This document shows, piece by piece, positions 1 to 48,400 of a DNA stretch of 64,000 bases. This DNA comes from an uncultured Gammaproteobacteria bacterium (GTDB lineage: Bacteria > Patescibacteriota > Patescibacteriia > GWA2-47-26), in contig CAZHIP010000001.1 of assembly GCA_964532925.1 (NCBI GenBank), forward strand, positions 11,227-75,226. Direction: 5' to 3'. Position 1 is the first letter of the stretch. Every line of letters begins with the position of its first letter. The translations under genes were made by a program, and so were the position numbers. The notes under the pieces were generated by a model that did not search any database, was not told where the DNA came from, and saw only the letters and a list, made by a program, of their open reading frames with translations.

Positions 1-272
1 GGTGGCTTACCTACCAACTTTTCAAGAGTATACTCACCGCGCTTGATTGGCGTGTCGGTGCTTATCATACGCAGGTTCCTAGTCACATAGTGAATGCGGT
101 GTCTGACTGGGAATTAAACTTCGTTGGGTATTTGCGCATGAATCTGAGGAAGCGTTTGAATGATCCATTCATGTATGGGTGTGCGCAGGAGCTCCTCGAT
201 CAACTCTGGGGTTTGCGTCAAAAAATTCGCGCAGCATACCCAACAGGCATTCCGGGGGATTCAAGAGTATAG
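1..272 (+). CDS. 3' end of a gene that begins upstream of the window (hypothetical protein)
   Basis: Frame 3 is open from position 3 to the stop at 270-272. No recognisable motif in the roughly 90 aa visible. Confidence 0.3.
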   Translation, partial: WLTYQLFKSILTALDWRVGAYHTQVPSHIVNAVSDWELNFVGYLRMNLRKRLNDPFMYGCAQELLDQLWGLRQKIRAAYPTGIPGDSRV

Positions 273-293
273 ATTTTAATGCACCTTCTCGAT

Positions 294-329
294 AAGGCGC
301 TCACCTCGGTGTGCGCCTTTTGTCTTTTT
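294..329. terminator. Rho-independent terminator hairpin, likely bidirectional
   Basis: aaggcgc-tcacctcggtgt-gcgcctt stem-loop followed by ttgtcttttt. A second hairpin with a T-run on the opposite strand lies at about 336-370. Confidence 0.55.
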
Positions 330-589
330 AAAAACGAGAAACCCGAAGCAAGTGCTCCGGGTTGGAAAAGGTGCGGTTCATGATTGTTTACCGGCGAAGG
401 ATTTCGCTCAAGGTGCGAAGGGGTCCCCAGGTTCCCTGTTTCGACTGCTCACTTGCCGAGGCACGAAGCAAGCAGTTGCTGCAGGTTCCGCAGGAGCTCT
501 CGCTGGCGAGTGATGCTTTGTCTGGTTCAGGGCAGACCACATTGCGCAGCTTCGGTTCTGCGTTTCGAAACAAGCAGAGTATTTCTGTA

Positions 590-1396
590 TCAGGTTGCTT
601 TGGCGACATTGCTCACCTCCAGATCGTCTTTAGGAAAACCTTCTTTGAGTTCATAGTCTTTGTAGAGCTTGGGAAGCATGGCGTCAGGTCGCCACAGTTT
701 CTTGATCTCGAGGATGTCATCGGCGGTCTGATACTTGCCACCTTCAGTGGCATAGCTGGTTGCCAATTCATCGACCTGAAAGAAAGGTATCTGCGCGATG
801 CGCATACCAACCACCAGAGGAATAGAGCACTCCTCCATGTGGTTAGTGATCTCCATGGTCCATCGGTTGATGTACCCAAGATCACCCCAGCCGGCGCATT
901 TGCAGACCGTGATGCCGATGCGACCCATGGAGGAGCGCGCTCGCATCTCGGTTGAGACACACGTACGTCCGCCAATGAACTCGAGTGTGTGCGCGAGAAT
1001 CGTCTGTCCCGGATTTATCAGAATGACCTGGCAGTCATCAGGGATGCGATGGATCACGATGCCGTGCTCTTTCCATTCGTGGACAGTAAGCGCGTCGCAT
1101 GGCTGTCCCCAGCGTTGCCGTACCTGCTCTTCAATGAATGGATTGAAGATGCGATTCTTTCCATGAGGCAGTTTTTGCTCACGGTAGAAGTAGCGTCCGA
1201 GCCGCACATCGTAGCTCGTGGTCTTCAGGTCGCGCGGATTGCCATCGAGATCTTTTGATTCGTTGGCATCTGCGAGATGTTTGAAGCAGATGGGGTCGAT
1301 TACGATGTTGCCGAGCTTGATGTGCTCAAGCACAATATCGCGCGAAAGGAGCGATCGCCCTGGCGGCGGCTTTACGAAAAAATCATGTGCGTTCAT
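590..1396 (-). CDS. dcd: dCTP deaminase-like protein (Dcd/dUTPase superfamily), long form
   Basis: Translation contains SYDVRLG and RSSMGRIGI, matching Dcd signature segments. Start refined to the ATG at 1396 (MNAHDFF), which is preceded by GGAGG with a 5-nt spacer. Confidence 0.6.
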   Translation of the reverse strand: MNAHDFFVKPPPGRSLLSRDIVLEHIKLGNIVIDPICFKHLADANESKDLDGNPRDLKTTSYDVRLGRYFYREQKLPHGKNRIFNPFIEEQVRQRWGQPCDALTVHEWKEHGIVIHRIPDDCQVILINPGQTILAHTLEFIGGRTCVSTEMRARSSMGRIGITVCKCAGWGDLGYINRWTMEITNHMEECSIPLVVGMRIAQIPFFQVDELATSYATEGGKYQTADDILEIKKLWRPDAMLPKLYKDYELKEGFPKDDLEVSNVAKAT

Positions 1397-1524
1397 GTGC
1401 ACCTCCTGAGTCGGATGGTATCCCACCGTGGTAATGGCGTCAAAAAAGCCTATTTTTTAAGCATAAGTCCCTATTTACGCGTAAGCTTTATCATGCTACA
1501 CTCTACGGGCAAATACGATTTCCC

Positions 1525-3519
1525 ATGAATGTCACTGAATTAGCCCGTCGTTTACGGGTCAACACCGAAGAATTGAAGAACGTGCTTCCGGGCATGGGCT
1601 TTGACTTTGGTCGCCGTGCCATCAAAATTCCCGACCTTGTTGCCTGGAAGATCATCAACGCCTGGCCGTCCTACATTCGTGAACAGCAGAAAAAGAAAGA
1701 AGCCGAACGCGATACCGAGCGTTTGAGTGTTGCGCGTGAAGCTGCAAAAGACATTATGTTGCCGCCAGTCTTTAGTGTCAAAGAATTTGCCGCCTATTTG
1801 GGTTTGCCGGTAACGCGCGTTATTGCTGAACTCATGAAGAACGGCATTTTGGCCGCCATGAACGAGCGAATTGACTACACAACCGCGAGTATTATTGCCA
1901 ATGACCTTGGTTTTTCGGTCAAAGCGAAAGAAAAGGACACCGCCGCCAGTGTGTACGAAGAAACCGCCGACGATACGGTCAAGGAACTCATGGGCAAAGA
2001 AGTCGGGCAGGTGCTCGAAGCTCGTCCGCCGGTGGTGGTCATTATGGGTCACGTTGATCACGGGAAGACTACCCTTCTTGATGCTATTCGCCGCACGAAC
2101 GTTGTTGCCAAAGAAGCTGGTGGCATTACGCAACATATTGGCGCCTATCAAGTAGAAAAGAAAGACCGTCACATTACATTTATCGACACTCCTGGCCACG
2201 AAGCATTTACGACCATGCGTTCTCGTGGTGCGCGTATTGCCGATGTTGCAGTCTTAGTTGTTGCCGCAGACGATGGTGTGCAGCCACAAACACTCGAAGC
2301 ACTTTCAATTATTCAGGCCACCAAAGTACCCTACGCGATTGCGGTTAATAAAATGGATAAACCAGCCGCCGACCCAGAACGCGTCAAACGCGAATTGTCG
2401 GAAAAAGGTGTTATTCCTGAAGATTGGGGAGGTCCGGTACCATTTGTACAGCTTTCTGCGAAGACCGGTGATGGTATCGATGGTCTGCTCGATGTGGTCC
2501 TTATTCTTGCGGATATCAACAAAGATGCAATCATGGCTGACCCGAACGGTCGCGCCATTGGTACGGTTATTGAATCGCACGTTGATGACAAAGAAGGCGT
2601 ACTTGCAACAGTTCTTGTTCAAAACGGCACGTTGAAGCGCGGTGACACCCTCGGTGTTCGCGGTGTTCTCTATGGTCGCGTTCGTGCACTCAAAGATTGG
2701 GCACGCAAAGATGTTTTAAATGTAAAACCAGGTACTCCTGTGCAGGTGTTGGGTCTCAAATCAGCACCAGAAGTCGGTGATGTTATTTCGGTACCACTCG
2801 AAGGCGAAGAACTTTCTTCACAAAAGTTTAAACATCGTGCAACACAGGAACCGTCGGTCATGATTACCGCACCAGCTGAATCGGGTGACGAGACAACGGT
2901 TCGCAACTTCAACATGGTTCTTAAAGCCGACGTGCTTGGTTCACTCGAGGCCATTGTGGCGAGTGTCGAAAAGATTAATACGCCAGAGGTAAAAGCTCGC
3001 GTGATCGCGAAAGGTCTCGGCAATATCACCGAGACCGACATTACGCATGCAGAAACAGGCCAAGCGGTGGTGTATGGTTTTAATGTGAATGCATCACTTA
3101 TCATTAACGACCTTGCACGCACGAAAGGTGTTGATATTCGCATGTACAAAATTATTTATGAACTTCTCGACAACGTGAAGCTTGAGATGGAGAAGTTGCT
3201 CGCACCAGAACTCATCCGTACGTCTGTTGGCCGTATTAAAATCATGCGTATTTTCCGCCAAGAGAAGAATGTGGCCATTACCGGTGGTCGCGTGGAAGAC
3301 GGAAAAGCAATCAAAAAATTGCCCGTCATCGTCATGCGTAATGGTGTCTTTGTTGGCAAAGGTAAGCTTACCGAAGTACAATCAGGCAAGCAGCCGGTAG
3401 ACGAGCTCCCGGGTGGCTCCGAAGGTGGTTTCAAAATTGAAGGCAAGTTTACGATGGAAGAAGGCGACGTGGTCGAAGTTATCCGCGAAGAGGAGCGCGA
3501 ACGACACCTCGAAGATTAG
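1525..3519 (+). CDS. infB: translation initiation factor IF-2
   Basis: GTP-binding motifs [15 protein letters not shown] and DTPGHEAF, with a C-terminal IF-2 beta-barrel region; 664 aa. Confidence 0.95.
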
Positions 3520-3919: not shown

Positions 3920-4849
3920 ATGGAAAAAGTCATTATTATTGGTGCGGGGCCAGCAGGATACACCGCCGCAATCTATGCAGCGCGTGCGGATTTAAAACCT
4001 TTGATGTTCGAAGGTTTACAGCCAGGCGGACAATTGACGACAACCACTGATGTTGAGAATTTCCCGGGGTTTCCAAAAGGTGTTATGGGACCCGATCTCA
4101 TGATTGCCATGAAAGAACAGGCGGTGCGGTTTGGCACGCGCGTTGAAACCAAGAATGTTGATCGCGTTGATTTCTCCGGTGATGTCAAAAAGGTCTATGT
4201 GGGCGATGAGGTACATGAGGCAACAACCGTGATTATTGCCACTGGTGCTACAGCAAAGCGTATTGGTCTCTCGGCAGAGCAAGCGCTCTATGGTCGTGGA
4301 GTATCAGCATGCGCAACCTGCGATGCGCCACTCTTTAAGGGTAAGAAAAATGTATTGGTTGTTGGTGGAGGAGATAGCGCAATGGAAGAAGCGCTGTTTC
4401 TCACCAAGTTTGTTGAGACGGTAACCATTGTGCATCGTCGCGACGCGTTCCGTGCCTCAAAGATCATGCAAGACCGCGTCCTCAAACATCCAAAAATTAA
4501 GATCTTGTGGAATAGCGCAGTCGTAGATATTTTGGGCGTTGAAGTGGGTCACGTGACGGGCGCAAAAATAAAAAACACTCAAACAGAAGAAGTGAGTGAG
4601 GTAGTTTGCGATGGTGTTTTTGCTGCGATCGGGCACGAACCGAACGTGAAGTTTTTAAACGGCGCATTACCGCTCGATGAAAAAGGGTATATTGCAACAA
4701 CGAGCCCGAACACGGTGACAACAAATATCTCTGGTGTGTTTGCGTGCGGTGATGTGATGGATTCGCGCTATCGCCAAGCTATTACCGCCGCTGGAACTGG
4801 TTGTATGGCCGCCATCGAGGCAGAGAAGTACCTCGAGGAGCATGAGTAA
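3920..4849 (+). CDS. trxB: thioredoxin-disulfide reductase
   Basis: FAD motif IIGAGPAGYTAA, redox-active CATCDA, NADPH motif GGGDSA; 309 aa; lies immediately after trxA. Confidence 0.9.
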   Translation: MEKVIIIGAGPAGYTAAIYAARADLKPLMFEGLQPGGQLTTTTDVENFPGFPKGVMGPDLMIAMKEQAVRFGTRVETKNVDRVDFSGDVKKVYVGDEVHEATTVIIATGATAKRIGLSAEQALYGRGVSACATCDAPLFKGKKNVLVVGGGDSAMEEALFLTKFVETVTIVHRRDAFRASKIMQDRVLKHPKIKILWNSAVVDILGVEVGHVTGAKIKNTQTEEVSEVVCDGVFAAIGHEPNVKFLNGALPLDEKGYIATTSPNTVTTNISGVFACGDVMDSRYRQAITAAGTGCMAAIEAEKYLEEHE

Positions 4850-11746: not shown

Positions 11747-11932
11747 AGTGATTTGAGCTTGTTATATGAGGATAGTATGGCATTGATTGGCAGGCTTTGC
11801 AAAAACAAAAACCAGCCCCCGAGAGGGCTGATCTTTGGTGCGCAATAATCTTTTTGAAATCACTATGCAATTATAATGATCTTAAAATGATTCCCGTCTA
11901 TTATGACCCGACGGGATGATGGGGTTAAGGTT

Positions 11933-12244
11933 TTATTTCTGGCAAAAGTCATTGATCTCCTCAAGGAGAAAATCTTCGGGGCCAGAAACGGTTCTGATGC
12001 GAGTGGGGCACAGGATGGCGAGCGTCATAGCTTTGGCGAATTCCTCTTTTTTGCCCGAATCAACTATGAATATTACCGTCTGTTTAGTTTGAGCCAGTAT
12101 TTTTAGTGCTGTTGTAGTAGTCAGTACAACAGCTAGATCAACCTCCCTTTTTCCATACATGGGTTTATTGAGAAAGATCGCCGACCCTTCGTCCTCAAGC
12201 AAGTATCTCGGCACAAGGTTTTGGGGCATGTAGATACTAATCAT
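11933..12244 (-). CDS. hypothetical protein (103 aa), second gene of a two-gene operon
   Basis: ATG at 12242-12244 (MISIYMPQ) preceded by GGAG; its start overlaps the upstream gene's stop by 8 nt. Confidence 0.45.
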   Translation of the reverse strand: MISIYMPQNLVPRYLLEDEGSAIFLNKPMYGKREVDLAVVLTTTTALKILAQTKQTVIFIVDSGKKEEFAKAMTLAILCPTRIRTVSGPEDFLLEEINDFCQK

Positions 12245-12593
12245 TCGACTCCTTTTTGTACTCGAGTGGAAGTGGTTTTTCGACTTCATTTTCCGTGTAT
12301 TTGGGCAGGCCGGTAGACTCTCCGTCTCCGTCGAGAGCGTTGGACTCGTACCGTCGGGTTTTTCCATCTTTCAGGAAATCTCGAGCAGCTTGAGCCTTTC
12401 CACCATCGATGGTGGCCTCTGGTCCTTTGCCACAGGTGCAGGGGCTGACCGTCCAGCCGCTCCAGGAAGAGTCGCTGCCTCCCCGCATGTACCATGAGTG
12501 CACATGTGCCTTTCCGTCGATACACACGGTGGCTTCGTTTCTGTCGTTGTTGCACGCAACTACTACGCCAGCAAGCACGATTTCGTCTTCCAC
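12237..12593 (-). CDS. hypothetical Cys4 protein (118 aa)
   Basis: GTG start at 12593 preceded by AAGGAG with a 5-nt spacer. Four Cys (C..C ... C.C) suggest a zinc-ribbon-like fold. No signal peptide. Confidence 0.45.
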   Translation of the reverse strand: MEDEIVLAGVVVACNNDRNEATVCIDGKAHVHSWYMRGGSDSSWSGWTVSPCTCGKGPEATIDGGKAQAARDFLKDGKTRRYESNALDGDGESTGLPKYTENEVEKPLPLEYKKESND

Positions 12594-12633
12594 GGGATCT
12601 CCTTTTTGATTGTCAATGTTCAAAACTCATACG

Positions 12634-12708
12634 AATATATAATAAAATATACTATTTGTCAATATATTTACACCAAAAATTGACATAATATATAAATATG
12701 TATATAAT
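12634..12708. promoter_or_regulatory. divergent near-consensus sigma-70 promoters in an 80% AT spacer
   Basis: Plus strand: TTGACA (12680-85), 17-nt spacer, TATAAT (12703-08). Minus strand: TTGACA (12662-57), 17 nt, TATATT (12639-34). The two -35 boxes form the inverted repeat TGTCAA-N18-TTGACA. Confidence 0.55.
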
Positions 12709-12737
12709 ATTTTATACAATACTAACGAATTTGCCTT

Positions 12738-13511
12738 ATGTTAAGCCAAACGCAATTGCAAGCATCCTTGGACCCTGCTTTGGATGAGCTTGGTCTTACT
12801 CCGTACGAGAAGAACATGTATCTCCTCTCGCTCTCATTGGGTCCGACCCCTATCTCTGCTTTTGCTAAACACCTGGGCATTTCACGTCCGAATGTATATA
12901 AAGTTATCTTAGGCCTAGAAAAACGTGGATTAGCGATATTTTCTGACCGCGCCTCGCGCACCAAGACTTTTGTTGTAGAATCACCGCATATTTTGATAAA
13001 ACGGCTTAAAGAAAAACGCGAACGCATGGAGCAACTCGATGGTAGTGTTCTGAGTATCCTTCCGGATTTACTCGCTTTGTATCAGCAAGGGGACATGGCA
13101 ACCTCTTTAAAAGTCTTTGATACCAAGAAAGCCTGGGTAGATTTGTTTTTTCAGATTTTAACCGAGACGAATGACGAATATCTTTTCTTTGGAAATGTAG
13201 AAAAGTTTTTAGCATTTGCGCCATCAGTCCAAGCGCAGTGGGTAAAAGATCGGGTTGGGCGTGGTATTAAAGGAAAACTGTTGACTTTACCAAGTGTAGT
13301 GGCAAAAGAAAAAAGTACTCATGATAAGGAAGAATTACGGGAAACACGTTTTCTATCATCCATGAAATCATTTGAAGCTTCTTTTCTTATTTTTGGTAAA
13401 AAAGTGATTATCTGGCAACCAAAAGCCCCGTTAGCCATATTGGTCGAGGACGCTTTTATTGTGCAGATGTTACGCAGTATATTTGATGTCTTGTGGGAGC
13501 AAACGAAGTAA
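12738..13511 (+). CDS. TrmB-family transcriptional regulator
   Basis: N-terminal winged-helix segment LGLTPYEKNMYLLSLSLGPTPISAFAKHLGISRPNVYKVILGLEKRGL plus a C-terminal TrmB-like domain; 257 aa. Confidence 0.6.
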   Translation: MLSQTQLQASLDPALDELGLTPYEKNMYLLSLSLGPTPISAFAKHLGISRPNVYKVILGLEKRGLAIFSDRASRTKTFVVESPHILIKRLKEKRERMEQLDGSVLSILPDLLALYQQGDMATSLKVFDTKKAWVDLFFQILTETNDEYLFFGNVEKFLAFAPSVQAQWVKDRVGRGIKGKLLTLPSVVAKEKSTHDKEELRETRFLSSMKSFEASFLIFGKKVIIWQPKAPLAILVEDAFIVQMLRSIFDVLWEQTK

Positions 13512-13514
13512 ATA

Positions 13515-13543
13515 CAAAAAACTCCCATTACTGGGAGTTTTTT
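13515..13543. terminator. bidirectional terminator (TrmB gene and tRNA-Val)
   Basis: aaaaaa-actcccattactgggagt-tttttt. Confidence 0.6.
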
Positions 13544-13617
13544 GGTGCGCAATACTGGGATCGAACCAGTGACCTCTTCGATGTCAACGAAGCGCTCTAC
13601 CACTGAGCTAATTGCGC
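13543..13617 (-). tRNA. tRNA-Val (anticodon GAC), CCA encoded
   Basis: Reverse complement folds as a cloverleaf: GCGCAAT acceptor stem, GCTC/GAGC D-stem, anticodon loop TTGACAT, T-loop TTCGATC, 3' ACCA. Confidence 0.9.
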
Positions 13618-23392: not shown

Positions 23393-23464
23393 TGCGCCTG
23401 CTTGGATTCGAACCAAGAACCAGTCGTGTATAAGACGACTGCTCTGCCGTTGAGCTACAGGCGC
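23393..23464 (-). tRNA. tRNA-Ile (anticodon UAU, predicted AUA decoder); no encoded CCA
   Basis: Reverse complement GCGCCTG-TA-GCTC-AACGGCA-GAGC-A-GTCGT-CTTATAC-ACGAC-TGGTT-CTTGG-TTCGAAT-CCAAG-CAGGCGC-A is a canonical 72-nt cloverleaf with anticodon loop CTTATAC. Confidence 0.8.
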
Positions 23465-25914: not shown

Positions 25915-25943
25915 TTGACACAAGGCCGATTTCTGGGTATATT
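25915..25943 (+). promoter_or_regulatory. sigma-70-type promoter upstream of rluD
   Basis: TTGACA, 17-nt spacer, TATATT. Confidence 0.5.
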
Positions 25944-33071: not shown

Positions 33072-33869
33072 TTATTTACTGTTCGTAAGCAGTTTCTCGA
33101 ACAAGTCCGATGGAATCGCTCCTTCAACTTTGTTGCCGTTGATAAAAAATGTTGGGGTGCCCGCAACACCAGCTTCGGTGCCAACAGTAGTGTCGGTAGC
33201 AACTTCTTTTTTTGTGGTGGGATCAATAAGGCAGAGTTGGAACGCATTTACATTGAGCCCGATTTGGTTGGCATACGCCTGGAGGTCGGTAGCGGAGAGC
33301 TTGTCTTGGCTACCAAAGACTTTGTCATGCATCTGCCAGAAACGGTTTTGCTTGTTTGCACACGAAAGCGCAAGTGCGGCGCGTGTTGCATTCGGGTGAA
33401 TGTCGTTTAGGGGAAAGTCTTTAAAGACAAAATGGAACTTGTCGGGATACGCGAGCATGGCTTTTCGAAGGGTTTGGGAGAACGCGGCAGAGTAGGGGCA
33501 CTGTGCATCAGCAAATTCAATTATCTGAATAGGTGCGGTTGGCTCACCAAAGGTAGGGTCACCATCAGTATCGGCGATTTTGGCGATGAGTTCTGTTGAT
33601 ATCGCGGTGGTGCGTGGTAGACTTGATGAGCGAGTAAAGCCACTCGTGGTGGTGACGCCGGTGATGGTATCGCCACGACGAATTTTAACCGTATAAAAGC
33701 CCACAAGGACAATAAACGCCACCACACAAGAGGCCATGAATCCGACTAAAACACCGAGGAAAACACGCGCAGTTCGGCTCATAAAAATCTCGGGTTTGGC
33801 TTGACAAATAAGTGCTTGTAGTATATCATAATTTACTACATTGGTGTGCGCTTCGCTTGGAGCTTTCAT
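33072..33869 (-). CDS. membrane-anchored DsbA-family thioredoxin-fold oxidoreductase (CPYS active-site variant)
   Basis: N-terminal TM helix, active site AQCPYSAAF, and a cis-Pro motif GTPTFFING. Start ambiguous (ATG at 33869 or 33782). Confidence 0.6.
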   Translation of the reverse strand: MKAPSEAHTNVVNYDILQALICQAKPEIFMSRTARVFLGVLVGFMASCVVAFIVLVGFYTVKIRRGDTITGVTTTSGFTRSSSLPRTTAISTELIAKIADTDGDPTFGEPTAPIQIIEFADAQCPYSAAFSQTLRKAMLAYPDKFHFVFKDFPLNDIHPNATRAALALSCANKQNRFWQMHDKVFGSQDKLSATDLQAYANQIGLNVNAFQLCLIDPTTKKEVATDTTVGTEAGVAGTPTFFINGNKVEGAIPSDLFEKLLTNSK

Positions 33870-46282: not shown

Positions 46283-48400
46283 ATGGCACCACCGCGGTCG
46301 CTGGCCATCGAATTTGCCATTGATTCATTCCGCAATGAAATGGCGGATCGCGCTCGCAATGCGTTTCAGCAATTCAATCGCACGGCAAGTCGTGTTCGTT
46401 CTTTTGGTTCCCGTTCGTTGCGCAAAAAAAGAGAATTACTTTCGACCACAGAAGCATTGGTAGATGCTATGGTTCCAGTGCTTGAGCATGTAAAAGAGGT
46501 GGCAGAAGAGAAATTGTCCTTGCGAAAACGTGTTGCGACCTGGCTTGCGAGTCGGGTGACCACCGCGCATATTTATGTACCACCACGCTCACTTTCGATT
46601 GCCTTTTTCGTGGCAATGCTTGTATTGCTTACCTTGCCATTTGGAGTGATTCACGTATATCGCGATGTAAAGGTGCGCCAAGCTGAATTTAGGGAGAGAA
46701 AGATTGTTATGGTTGCGCTTTCCGACCAGGTAAGTACCTCATTGCGTACCGGTGACCTGGAGGGAGCGTTGCGTGCGCTGCATGCGCTCGAAGAGTCGGT
46801 GCAGGCAGCAGCAGATGCGATTGATGCAAGCGGTGTATTCAAATATGCGCCACCATTGCACCAAACACAGAACGCGTTGAAATCCGCTGTTGCGGCGCTT
46901 GGTCAAGGAAGAGTTGCTTTGGCAGGCGTACAGCGTTTTCCGTGGAATAAAGATGTGTTTATTGCAATAACCAAAACTCTTGATGCTGCAGAGAGGACTG
47001 CGTGGTACGTGGATCGCACTCGCATGGGCATTGATACAGGCCCAGCAAAGAGCTATATTCGTCTCGCAAAAGATAACCTCATGCTTGCGCAAGCATTTTT
47101 GGGGCAGCAAGACAGTCGGTATCTTGTCGTATTTCAGAACGAGAATGAGATTCGGCCGACCGGTGGTTTTATGGGCAGTTTTGCCGTGCTGACTCTCAAA
47201 GACGGTGTGTGGTCAATCGAAATGCCGTCGCAAGGATCATATGCACTTCAGGGGTGGCTCACTACTGCAGTCCGTGCGCCGCGACCATTATCACTCATCA
47301 ATCCGCGGTTTGAGTTTCAAGATGTAAATTGGTTTCCAGATTTCCCTACAACAGCAAAAAAGATTATGTCGTTTTACGAAGATGGGGGAGGGTCGAGTGT
47401 CGATGGGGTCATTGCGGTCAACAGTTCATTTTTAAATGATGTGTTGGCGTTGGCGGGGCCGCTCGATGTGAAAGAGATTAGCCCTGTAGCACTCAAGAAC
47501 GGTACCGTGGTTGAGGCGCTCGAAAAAGCCATTGCACGAGATCGTGCTACCACTGCGCCAAAAGCAGTAATGGGAGGTCTTCTTGATGCGCTTGCCACGC
47601 GATTTCAGTCAGGTGCGGTTGCGCCAATTGCTGCTGCTCGTCTTGCTGCCATTGGTCTTAGTGAAAAAAAGATCCAGCTATATTTCCGTGATGATTCCAA
47701 TCAGTCGGCTGCAGCACGATTGGGTTTTGATGGAGGTATTCCTCGTAGCGGAGATAAGGATTTTTTCATGCTTGTTTCGGCAAATGTTGCTGGAGGTAAG
47801 ACAGATGGTTCCATTCACGATGTCGTGGGCTATAAAGTATCGGTGAACGAGAATGGAGAAATGGTGGCTCATGTGACCTTGACGCGTACCCACGAAGGTT
47901 TGCGTGGAGATGCGTTGCGAGGCGGCAGAAATGTGAGCTATGTTCGGCTGTATGCCCCCTTAGGCAGTGAGTTTTTAGGGGCCAGTGGTTTCAGCAAAGC
48001 TCCTTCATGGCGATTTGAAAACCCTGAATCAACGCTCATTCCCGACGAAGATGTTCGTGCGTCAGAACTTACCGAAAAGATAGACACCAATAGTGGTACA
48101 ATTATTGCAACAGAATCGGGGAAGCAAGTCTTTGGAAACTGGTTCATACTCGACCCTGGAGAAGTAAAAACCGTACAACTTAGGTATCTGTTGCCAAGCC
48201 GTATTACCAAAGACATGCAGAATAAGTATGCGCTTATGGTTGCCAAGCAATCAGGCCGTACCACGGACTTTCATTTTACGATGAATGCACCAGGGTTTAC
48301 TATTGTCGCTCTAGACTCCCAGGAAACAAGTCGTGAGGGATATGCAATGAAACGCGCATTGACGACCGATAGTATTACTCGATTGGTGCTTACACCATAA
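46283..48400 (+). CDS. DUF4012-like membrane-anchored envelope protein
   Basis: Single TM helix then a large extracytoplasmic domain containing VFQNENEIRPTGGFMGSFAV, which I recall as DUF4012-like. Start set at the ATG at 46283, after the upstream stop. Confidence 0.45.
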   Translation: MAPPRSLAIEFAIDSFRNEMADRARNAFQQFNRTASRVRSFGSRSLRKKRELLSTTEALVDAMVPVLEHVKEVAEEKLSLRKRVATWLASRVTTAHIYVPPRSLSIAFFVAMLVLLTLPFGVIHVYRDVKVRQAEFRERKIVMVALSDQVSTSLRTGDLEGALRALHALEESVQAAADAIDASGVFKYAPPLHQTQNALKSAVAALGQGRVALAGVQRFPWNKDVFIAITKTLDAAERTAWYVDRTRMGIDTGPAKSYIRLAKDNLMLAQAFLGQQDSRYLVVFQNENEIRPTGGFMGSFAVLTLKDGVWSIEMPSQGSYALQGWLTTAVRAPRPLSLINPRFEFQDVNWFPDFPTTAKKIMSFYEDGGGSSVDGVIAVNSSFLNDVLALAGPLDVKEISPVALKNGTVVEALEKAIARDRATTAPKAVMGGLLDALATRFQSGAVAPIAAARLAAIGLSEKKIQLYFRDDSNQSAAARLGFDGGIPRSGDKDFFMLVSANVAGGKTDGSIHDVVGYKVSVNENGEMVAHVTLTRTHEGLRGDALRGGRNVSYVRLYAPLGSEFLGASGFSKAPSWRFENPESTLIPDEDVRASELTEKIDTNSGTIIATESGKQVFGNWFILDPGEVKTVQLRYLLPSRITKDMQNKYALMVAKQSGRTTDFHFTMNAPGFTIVALDSQETSREGYAMKRALTTDSITRLVLTP

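Follow-up and report, generated by a model that had tools for sequence, protein, structure and literature searches.

In this study, we analysed a divergent control region and its flanking genes in a DNA stretch of 64,000 nucleotides (nt) from an uncultured bacterium of the Patescibacteriota (contig CAZHIP010000001.1 of assembly GCA_964532925.1, positions 11,227 to 75,226). This whole stretch is referred to as the window, and position 1 is its first letter. At the locus, a spacer rich in adenine and thymine (AT) separates the gene of a TrmB-family regulator from two small open reading frames (ORFs), w118 and w103, which are read in the opposite direction. The spacer carries two back-to-back promoters and two copies of a palindrome, GTATA-N7/8-TATAC, which is a candidate operator of the regulator. 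The features, in order of position, are as follows.

11933-12244, minus strand: w103, an ORF of 103 amino acids with an ATG start, overlapping w118 by 8 nt, with AAGGAG at 12249-12254, 4 nt ahead of the ATG
12237-12593, minus strand: w118, coding for 118 amino acids from a GTG start, with conserved C24, K28, H30, C52 (followed by T and C54) and ADFLKDGKTR
12599-12605, minus strand: Shine-Dalgarno sequence AAAGGAG of w118, 5 nt ahead of the GTG, as read from the sequence
12634-12662, minus strand: minus promoter, TTGACA-17-TATATT, with the -35 hexamer at 12662 to 12657 and the -10 hexamer at 12639 to 12634; 11 of 12 consensus positions
12635-12652: distal operator candidate, ATATATAATAAAATATAC, matching GTATA-N8-TATAC at 9 of 10 positions and lying over the spacer and -10 hexamer of the minus promoter
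12680-12708, plus strand: plus promoter, TTGACA-17-TATAAT, with the -35 hexamer at 12680-12685 and the -10 hexamer at 12703-12708; 12 of 12 consensus positions
12700-12717: proximal operator candidate, GTATATAATATTTTATAC, an exact GTATA-N8-TATAC over the -10 hexamer and start site of the regulator's promoter
12738-13511, plus strand: gene of the TrmB-family regulator, 257 amino acids, matching PF01978 at 36.6 bits

Both promoters had been noted in a preliminary description of this DNA and were present as described. The promoter pattern with at most one mismatch occurred six times in the window against 0.48 expected, and none of 100 shuffles gave six matches. Two of the six fell inside the spacer between the regulator and w118, and these two are among the best consensus promoters in these genomes. 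The spacer had been given as about 110 bp with about 80% AT. Its AT-richness was borne out, while the distance from start codon to start codon was 144 bp (78.5% AT), with a 110-bp core of 83.6% AT. The gap between the two -35 hexamers was 17 nt and not 18 nt, as had been counted. Transcription from the plus promoter was predicted to start at about 12714-12716, ahead of a 22-nt leader (12716-12737) that has no Shine-Dalgarno sequence, and transcription from the minus promoter at about 12627, which is 34 nt ahead of the GTG of w118. Both predicted leaders were unstructured in RNA folding, and an Rfam scan gave a tRNA as its sole match and no RNA element to explain the spacer. The regulator leaders of close relatives likewise had no Shine-Dalgarno sequence; w118 and w103, in contrast, have strong ones. 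A third copy of TTGTCAAT (ATTGTCAAT, near-palindromic) was located at 12609-12617, in the predicted leader of w118, downstream of the putative start site and ahead of the Shine-Dalgarno sequence.

The palindrome was confined to this spacer within the window. Its exact form was found only at 12700-12717, against 0.02 copies expected, and a search allowing one mismatch returned two sites, both in the spacer. A repeat search recovered the two palindromes as a 20-nt direct repeat, 65 bp apart. The same exclusive association was observed in related loci. Among 65 exact copies of GTATA-N7/8-TATAC in 554 kb of these loci, 64 were located at most 130 nt upstream of the regulator ATG. This was replicated in an independent set of 56 metagenome loci, in which 53 of 54 exact copies were upstream of the regulator. 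Although the promoter consensus does not extend to the right half-site, TATAC(A), which follows the -10 hexamer, this half-site was nearly invariant. The spacing of the two sites was quantised as well. The centre-to-centre distance was 65 bp in the window, and in orthologues, where the distal site was scored as a match of at least 8 of 10 positions at 54-55 or 64-65 bp from the proximal site, only these two distances were found, again with replication. The two classes differ by one helical turn, and 65 bp corresponds to about six turns. Spacings that differ by a full turn are classically taken to mean that a single protein complex contacts both sites from the same face of the DNA. These results suggest that the operator is probably GTATA-N7/8-TATAC, present twice in the spacer, rather than the inverted repeat of -35 hexamers that had been proposed in the preliminary description.

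The sole exception in the metagenome set was an exact GTATA-N7-TATAC at position 4791 of locus L088, about 120 nt past the regulator stop codon. It lies ahead of genes that include a member of a 265-amino-acid family described below, and it may mark a second regulated promoter. The other near-consensus promoters of the window were a perfect TTGACA-17-TATATT at 25915-25943 (plus strand) and three with one mismatch, at 1753-1781 (minus strand), 33801-33829 (plus strand) and 47031-47059 (plus strand). The palindrome was found in none of these four.

We compared the 170 nt upstream of each regulator orthologue across loci. Almost all orthologues had a common order, namely the minus -10 hexamer, TATAC, TGTCAA (the minus -35 hexamer), a gap, TTGACA (the plus -35 hexamer), 17 nt, the plus -10 hexamer embedded in TGTATA, 7-8 nt and TATACA. 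This divergent layout was found in about 100 loci of the candidate phyla radiation (CPR; Patescibacteria) and was kept in Uhrbacteria, Kerfeldbacteria, Magasanikbacteria, Falkowbacteria, Moranbacteria, Jacksonbacteria and others. Promoters matching at least 11 of 12 consensus positions with a 17-nt spacer were present on the plus side in 25 of 66 loci and on the minus side in 30 of 66. The expectation was 0.0033 per 130 nt per strand, as derived from the remaining 476 kb of these loci, which contained 24 matches of this kind. A nucleotide alignment of close relatives showed similarity from the minus -10 hexamer to the regulator ATG, and all similarity was lost immediately beyond. Judged from these alignments, the spacer belongs with the TrmBL2-like gene and forms its conserved two-way control region.

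The assignment of the regulator to the TrmB family, made in the preliminary description, was confirmed by the winged-helix domain PF01978, which matched residues 15-69 at 36.6 bits against the Pfam cut-off of 25.6. The sugar-binding domain PF11495 gave no match to the regulator in Pfam up to E = 1. When a profile of the regulator family was built, its positions 18-258 aligned end to end with residues 13-261 of TrmBL2 (PDB 5BOX, 263 residues; E = 3.7e-7). The family, with about 260 amino acids, is colinear with TrmBL2 over the winged helix, the helix and the C-terminal domain, and the last sugar subdomain of about 70 amino acids is absent. Y54 of the regulator was invariant in 37 homologues and aligned with the tyrosine of the TrmBL2 motif PRTYDV; the recognition-helix tyrosine is Y50 in P. 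furiosus TrmB and TrmBL2 (PMC4158304). By its profile matches, the regulator is a new, bacterial and distant member of the TrmB family with the architecture of TrmBL2.

A protein collection contained 250 homologues of the regulator, all from CPR bacteria wherever the source was named, and the closest named source was Candidatus Uhrbacteria. A scan of one genome per species gave 62 regulator loci with 36-73% identity, in Uhrbacteria, Kerfeldbacteria, Magasanikbacteria, Falkowbacteria, Moranbacteria, Jacksonbacteria, Zambryskiibacteria, Vogelbacteria, Giovannonibacteria, Buchananbacteria and others. The preliminary description had taken the locus for an autoregulated accessory module. On this distribution the regulator and its control region are widespread in CPR and hence not accessory, and the term fits the lineage-specific cargo genes only. 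In locus L075, two TrmB-family genes were arranged tail to tail (256-1050, plus strand, and 1075-1860, minus strand), the second being divergent from genes for a 275-amino-acid protein and a methyltransferase.

We consider it likely that the TrmBL2-like protein binds both palindromes cooperatively and represses its own gene as well as the w118 operon, probably including w103, until a signal releases it. In this mechanism, each of the predicted back-to-back sigma-70 promoters, both near consensus, is overlapped by one of the two palindromes. The protein, as dimers or as a tetramer like that of TrmBL2, would bind both palindromes from one side of the helix and thereby block both promoters to RNA polymerase. 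It would thus act as a repressor, rather than an activator, of itself and of w118 (and w103). A signal acting on the C-terminal domain of the regulator would then cause release and allow strong transcription. The autoregulation suggested in the preliminary description is thus likely.

Several points weigh against this mechanism and were taken into account. The binding of TrmBL2 to DNA is largely independent of sequence (PMC4158304, PMC4877046). The regulator scored only 15.6 bits with the NCBIfam TrmBL2 equivalog NF041141 against a cut-off of 530, and 23-24 bits with the TrmB and TrmBL1 equivalogs against cut-offs of 600-650. Since these scores are far below the cut-offs, the regulator is to be regarded as a distant TrmBL2-like relative and not as an orthologue of TrmBL2. 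An exact proximal site was absent in 12 of 68 loci, and the half-sites never varied, so that they provide no evidence of the covariation type. Part of the conservation of this AT-rich palindrome is promoter conservation, since it overlaps the -10 hexamers. In addition, another factor could bind the palindrome.

On the other side of the spacer, we examined the w118 protein. In agreement with the preliminary description, neither w118 nor w103 had a recognisable domain in Pfam, NCBIfam, PADLOC or PHROGs. An exhaustive HMMER search gave three real relatives of w118, P0122 (52% identical), P0123 (51%) and P0124 (43%). Matches to the giant proteins P0125 and P0126 were judged to be spurious, being due to a W-S-G-W-type stretch within repeated domains. 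The w118 family, including a fragment at locus L004 and a second paralogue at locus L011, conserves C24, K28, H30 and C52. The closer members also conserve T53, C54, W47 and the block A-x-x-DFLKDGKTR. The homologues are full length at 114-120 amino acids and at most 57% identical, with saturated synonymous sites. They begin with ME followed by D, N or S, which favours the GTG at 12593 over an upstream TTG at 12623 as the start of w118. The protein had previously been described as a zinc-ribbon-like protein with four cysteines. This was not supported, as its cysteines (C14, C24, C52 and C54) form no CxxC knuckles and the set conserved in homologues is C24, H30, C52 and C54. The structure model of w118 reached a predicted local distance difference test (pLDDT) of 70 and a predicted template modelling score of 0.67, with three strands, a helix and then short strands; its fold matches included no zinc-ribbon structure and no convincing structural neighbour. 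On the evidence of these alignments, w118 is a genuine small protein, conserved within a new family of few members that carries the motif C/H/CxC, and metal binding by the C/H/C/C site is plausible.

At each of the four loci where the gene context could be read (the window, L004, L010 and L011), a w118-family gene and a TrmBL2-like gene diverged from each other. At L011, the following genes were found.

16-804, minus strand: TrmBL2-like paralogue
1407-1757, plus strand: w118-family gene, 116 amino acids
2390-2773, plus strand: w118-family gene, 127 amino acids

The L011 paralogue is only 22% identical to the regulator of the window, and the two w118-family genes lie in the operon that diverges from it. 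The spacer at L011 contained TTGACA-17-TATTGT, and the GTATA palindrome was absent. As genes of the w118 family stand beside TrmBL2-like genes in every locus with context, including that of this paralogue, a functional link between the w118 family and TrmBL2-like regulators is suggested.

The module is bordered by terminators and by a short repeat of a tRNA end. The features at the borders are as follows.

11806-11837, minus strand: intrinsic terminator of the minus operon, a 14-bp stem and a T run (-20.6 kcal/mol, z = -4.0), which folds on the plus strand too
11834-11847: left copy of a 14-nt direct repeat, TTTGGTGCGCAATA, like a displaced tRNA-Val 3' end or attachment site
13515-13544, both strands: two-way terminator hairpin between the regulator gene and tRNA-Val, an inverted repeat (-18.3 kcal/mol, z = -5.6)
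13541-13554: right copy of the 14-nt repeat, consisting of the acceptor 3' strand and ACCA of tRNA-Val
13543-13617, minus strand: tRNA-Val(GAC), identified by ARAGORN (Rfam 72.6 bits)

A direct repeat of a tRNA end around a set of genes is a signature of integration into a tRNA gene. We weighed whether the module at 11848-13540 (w103, w118, spacer and regulator) is an old islet inserted in the 3' end of tRNA-Val and truly accessory, either as the remnant of an integrative element or as an element mobilised in trans. The two copies are exact, with a spacing of 1707, and enclose exactly these genes and the spacer; we estimate that about 0.01 such repeats would be expected by chance. With one mismatch allowed, the copy at 11834-11847 was the only further occurrence of TGGTGCGCAATA in the window. 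It stands directly ahead of the terminator at 11806-11837 on the tRNA strand, like a displaced tRNA end with its original terminator. The neighbours of the regulator differ between related genomes, and in L004, L026, L038 and L039 the regulator gene is followed by a tRNA within 250 nt. The guanine plus cytosine (GC) content was 55% in w118 (with windows up to 59-60%), compared to 42% in the regulator gene and 49% in the long genes of the window, which hints at a foreign origin of the cargo gene.

However, no integrase was found inside or near the repeats, and the flanking genes are those of LeuRS, YkuD, FtsK and RecA. No comparable repeats surrounded the regulator in the other loci adjacent to a tRNA, and partial copies of the tRNA end of 11-12 nt occurred elsewhere by chance. 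A scan of viral contigs yielded no relative of the regulator, and no w118 relative came from JGI metagenomes, viral contigs or plasmid or phage records. The wide distribution of the regulator in CPR also counts against insertion. Any insertion would have to be old, since L004 shares the order of regulator, tRNA-Val and FtsK. L004 is the closest relative, and its contig ends inside the w118 homologue, where the empty-site comparison stops. An inserted islet is therefore possible but, on balance, unlikely. The 14-nt repeat provides some independent support for a local insertion, and such an insertion would be compatible with control by the TrmBL2-like protein. Another tRNA gene in the window, tRNA-Ile with the anticodon TAT (UAU), was found at 23393-23464 on the minus strand. 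This UAU anticodon is an uncommon one among bacteria, which usually read AUA with a modified CAU anticodon.

We also considered whether w103 is a gene at all. If it were not, the minus operon would be monocistronic, and the 400 nt from w118 to the terminator would be an untranslated tail or a decayed gene. Three results speak against w103 as a gene. No homologue was found in a word-seeded search of 5.8 billion proteins or in any of the related loci. Its codon score was ambiguous: at 0.069, it fell below the 95th percentile of spurious ORFs (0.072) but above the 5th percentile of true genes (0.031). The gene caller on identical Logan contigs (SRR136087xx series) preferred an antisense ORF with a codon score of 0.132.

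11903-12106, plus strand: antisense ORF of 67 amino acids, the choice of the gene caller

In addition, the single-sequence structure model of w103 had a pLDDT of 46, which was too poor for a fold search, and a PDB sequence search with w103 found nothing. A survey of closer metagenome relatives of the regulator gained replicate promoter regions and gave no orthologue of w118 or w103. In favour of a gene, only 0.3% of shuffles of the 413-nt region produced an ORF of 103 or more amino acids. The good AAGGAG in front of the ATG and the 8-nt overlap with the w118 stop, which was as given in the preliminary description, are typical of translational coupling. The antisense ORF lacks a Shine-Dalgarno sequence and is oriented so that it would meet w118 head-on. 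We regard w103 as likely to be a real gene and consider its absence from the gene set rather doubtful. It is probably a translationally coupled second gene specific to the lineage of the window.

Next to the conserved control region, the divergent gene itself varied. A divergent ORF started 90-240 nt upstream of the regulator in 55 of 65 loci, often with a Shine-Dalgarno sequence, and the divergent proteins of different loci were unrelated to each other. In eight species the gene coded for a 2-hydroxyacid dehydrogenase of about 483 amino acids. Other loci had methyltransferases, a decarboxylase dependent on pyridoxal phosphate, solute-binding proteins, a B12/radical-SAM enzyme or orphans. The divergent gene differed even between regulators that are 82-87% identical. 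At L004 (regulator 87% identical to that of the window), the gene was the truncated w118 homologue, and at L074 (82%) the divergent side held a GC-rich stretch and other small ORFs. L005 (84%) and L007 (74%) had a protein of about 265 amino acids with no known domain, and L010 (79%) had a w118 homologue followed by a protein of about 265 amino acids and then a methyltransferase. In roughly one in six loci, the divergent gene was at least 10 GC points above its surroundings. At 1340-1640 of L074, about 300 nt of GC-rich DNA without a called gene separate the conserved minus promoter from the first small ORF. The family of about 265 amino acids has no Pfam domain and carries the motifs CDG and HHH. 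Its members were as follows.

L005, 2954-3751, minus strand: member of the 265-amino-acid family
L007, 5061-5855, minus strand: member of the 265-amino-acid family
L010, 1540-2340, plus strand: member of the 265-amino-acid family
L088, 6459-7316, plus strand: member of the 265-amino-acid family

In close relatives, the gene divergent from the regulator codes for a member of this family, often followed by an S-adenosylmethionine methyltransferase; the family is absent from the window. We also examined whether w118 and w103 might be a broken form of this divergent protein. This was rejected, as tblastn and a hidden Markov model of the family gave nothing in the window and the w118 homologues are full length.

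One reading of this variation is that the divergent arm serves as an expression slot, in which unrelated genes are repeatedly placed or swapped behind a conserved strong promoter under the control of the regulator. We put it forward tentatively and consider it improbable as it stands. In the window, the unit as a whole is also flanked by the tRNA-end repeat. The changing neighbour may instead reflect merely the poor conservation of gene order in CPR genomes. Such a slot, if it existed, would make the locus a hotspot, linked to the regulator, at which CPR bacteria capture genes or give rise to new ones, and proteins of the w118 type might be partners of TrmBL2-like regulators.

The variable neighbour also raised the question of whether the minus element drives any gene. 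It might be mainly an auxiliary operator for autoregulation that resembles a promoter because it is TATA-rich, in which case w118 and w103 would not be driven from it. A varying neighbour beside a conserved element is what would be expected if the element served the conserved gene, and the distal palindrome itself supplies a -10-like TATAnT. However, a separate TTGACA is conserved exactly 17 nt from the minus -10 hexamer. When the palindrome spacer is shortened from 8 to 7 nt, the gap between the minus -35 hexamer and the palindrome grows from 4 to 5 nt, and the 17-nt promoter spacing is kept. This compensation speaks for promoter function of the minus element beyond a role as auxiliary operator. 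The minus element was also closer to consensus than the plus element, with 32 against 23 of 56 loci at 11 or more of the 12 positions, and the divergent ORF of the 55 loci above starts just downstream of it. An operator without promoter function is therefore quite unlikely at this position.

It is very unlikely that the inverted -35 hexamers, TGTCAA-N17-TTGACA, are the palindromic operator of the regulator. They do form an inverted repeat in the window, but the gap between them was -7 to -5 nt (overlapping), 3-5 nt or 14-18 nt in orthologues, whereas a palindrome bound by a dimer would hold a fixed spacing. Each hexamer held 17 nt to its own -10 hexamer. The variable gap and the fixed 17 nt indicate that the hexamers act as two independent -35 boxes, and the fixed geometry was found in GTATA-N7/8-TATAC, which is exclusive to the promoter of the regulator. 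A toxin-antitoxin or anti-phage defence pair is the least credible explanation of all for w118 and w103, which are small, overlapping, lineage-specific and beside a tRNA, since neither matched a toxin, antitoxin or defence protein in the databases above, w118 homologues occur without any w103-like partner, and toxin-antitoxin pairs are not usually controlled by a separate, deeply conserved regulator.

Gene regulation in CPR bacteria is almost unstudied, and this locus offers a concrete and testable regulatory unit. The unit consists of a widespread TrmBL2-like protein, a precise candidate operator with two sites separated by whole helical turns, and two promoters of strong consensus. Since the promoters match the consensus of the E. 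coli type, E. coli can serve to test the model, and the source organism need not be cultured. The locus also defines a new family of small C/H/CxC proteins linked to TrmBL2-like genes. A further question is why, across very distant lineages, the promoter is conserved while the gene that it faces keeps changing. No paper pairing TrmB with CPR names was found in the full-text literature, the coverage of which was incomplete, and the operator, the two-site spacing and the w118 family appear to be undescribed.

Finally, we compared the unit with known systems. The closest protein is archaeal TrmBL2 (P. furiosus PF0496 and T. kodakarensis TK0471; PDB 5BOX, 5BPD and 5BQT). The two are alike in length (257-265 amino acids here and 264 in TrmBL2), in the order of winged helix, dimerisation helix and C-terminal domain, in having no sugar-binding subdomain and in the common recognition-helix tyrosine (PMC4158304). 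TrmBL2 forms tetramers, is expressed constantly and at a high level, and is better conserved in Thermococcales than any other member of the TrmB family (PMC4158304, PMC4877046). Likewise, the regulator described here is the family member most widely kept in its own lineage, and its near-consensus promoter suggests high expression, as reported for TrmBL2 (PMC4877046). The differences are that our regulator is bacterial, that the similarity is at the profile level only, and that it appears to be tied to a specific palindrome and to regulate itself, whereas TrmBL2 coats DNA with little specificity as a chromatin protein and global repressor (PMC4158304, PMC3031468).

TrmB and TrmBL1, which are sugar-sensing repressors, share the DNA-binding domain PF01978 with the regulator and repress by binding a palindrome over core promoter elements, which keeps RNA polymerase off (PMC4158304). 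Their operators are TACT-N3-AGTA and the Thermococcales glycolytic motif, and both the sequence and the spacing of the palindrome differ here. These proteins are archaeal, act on archaeal promoters and carry PF11495, which was not detected in the regulator of the window. In Tn10 tetR-tetA, back-to-back promoters lie in a short AT-rich spacer with two palindromic operators, and one repressor controls both genes. The locus resembles this system in its divergent promoters and two palindromes within a short AT-rich spacer, and in a repressor that would regulate itself together with a divergent target. In contrast to tetR-tetA, the protein family is another one, the operators are 54 or 65 bp apart in whole turns and not adjacent, and the regulated gene is not fixed but differs between closely related regulators.

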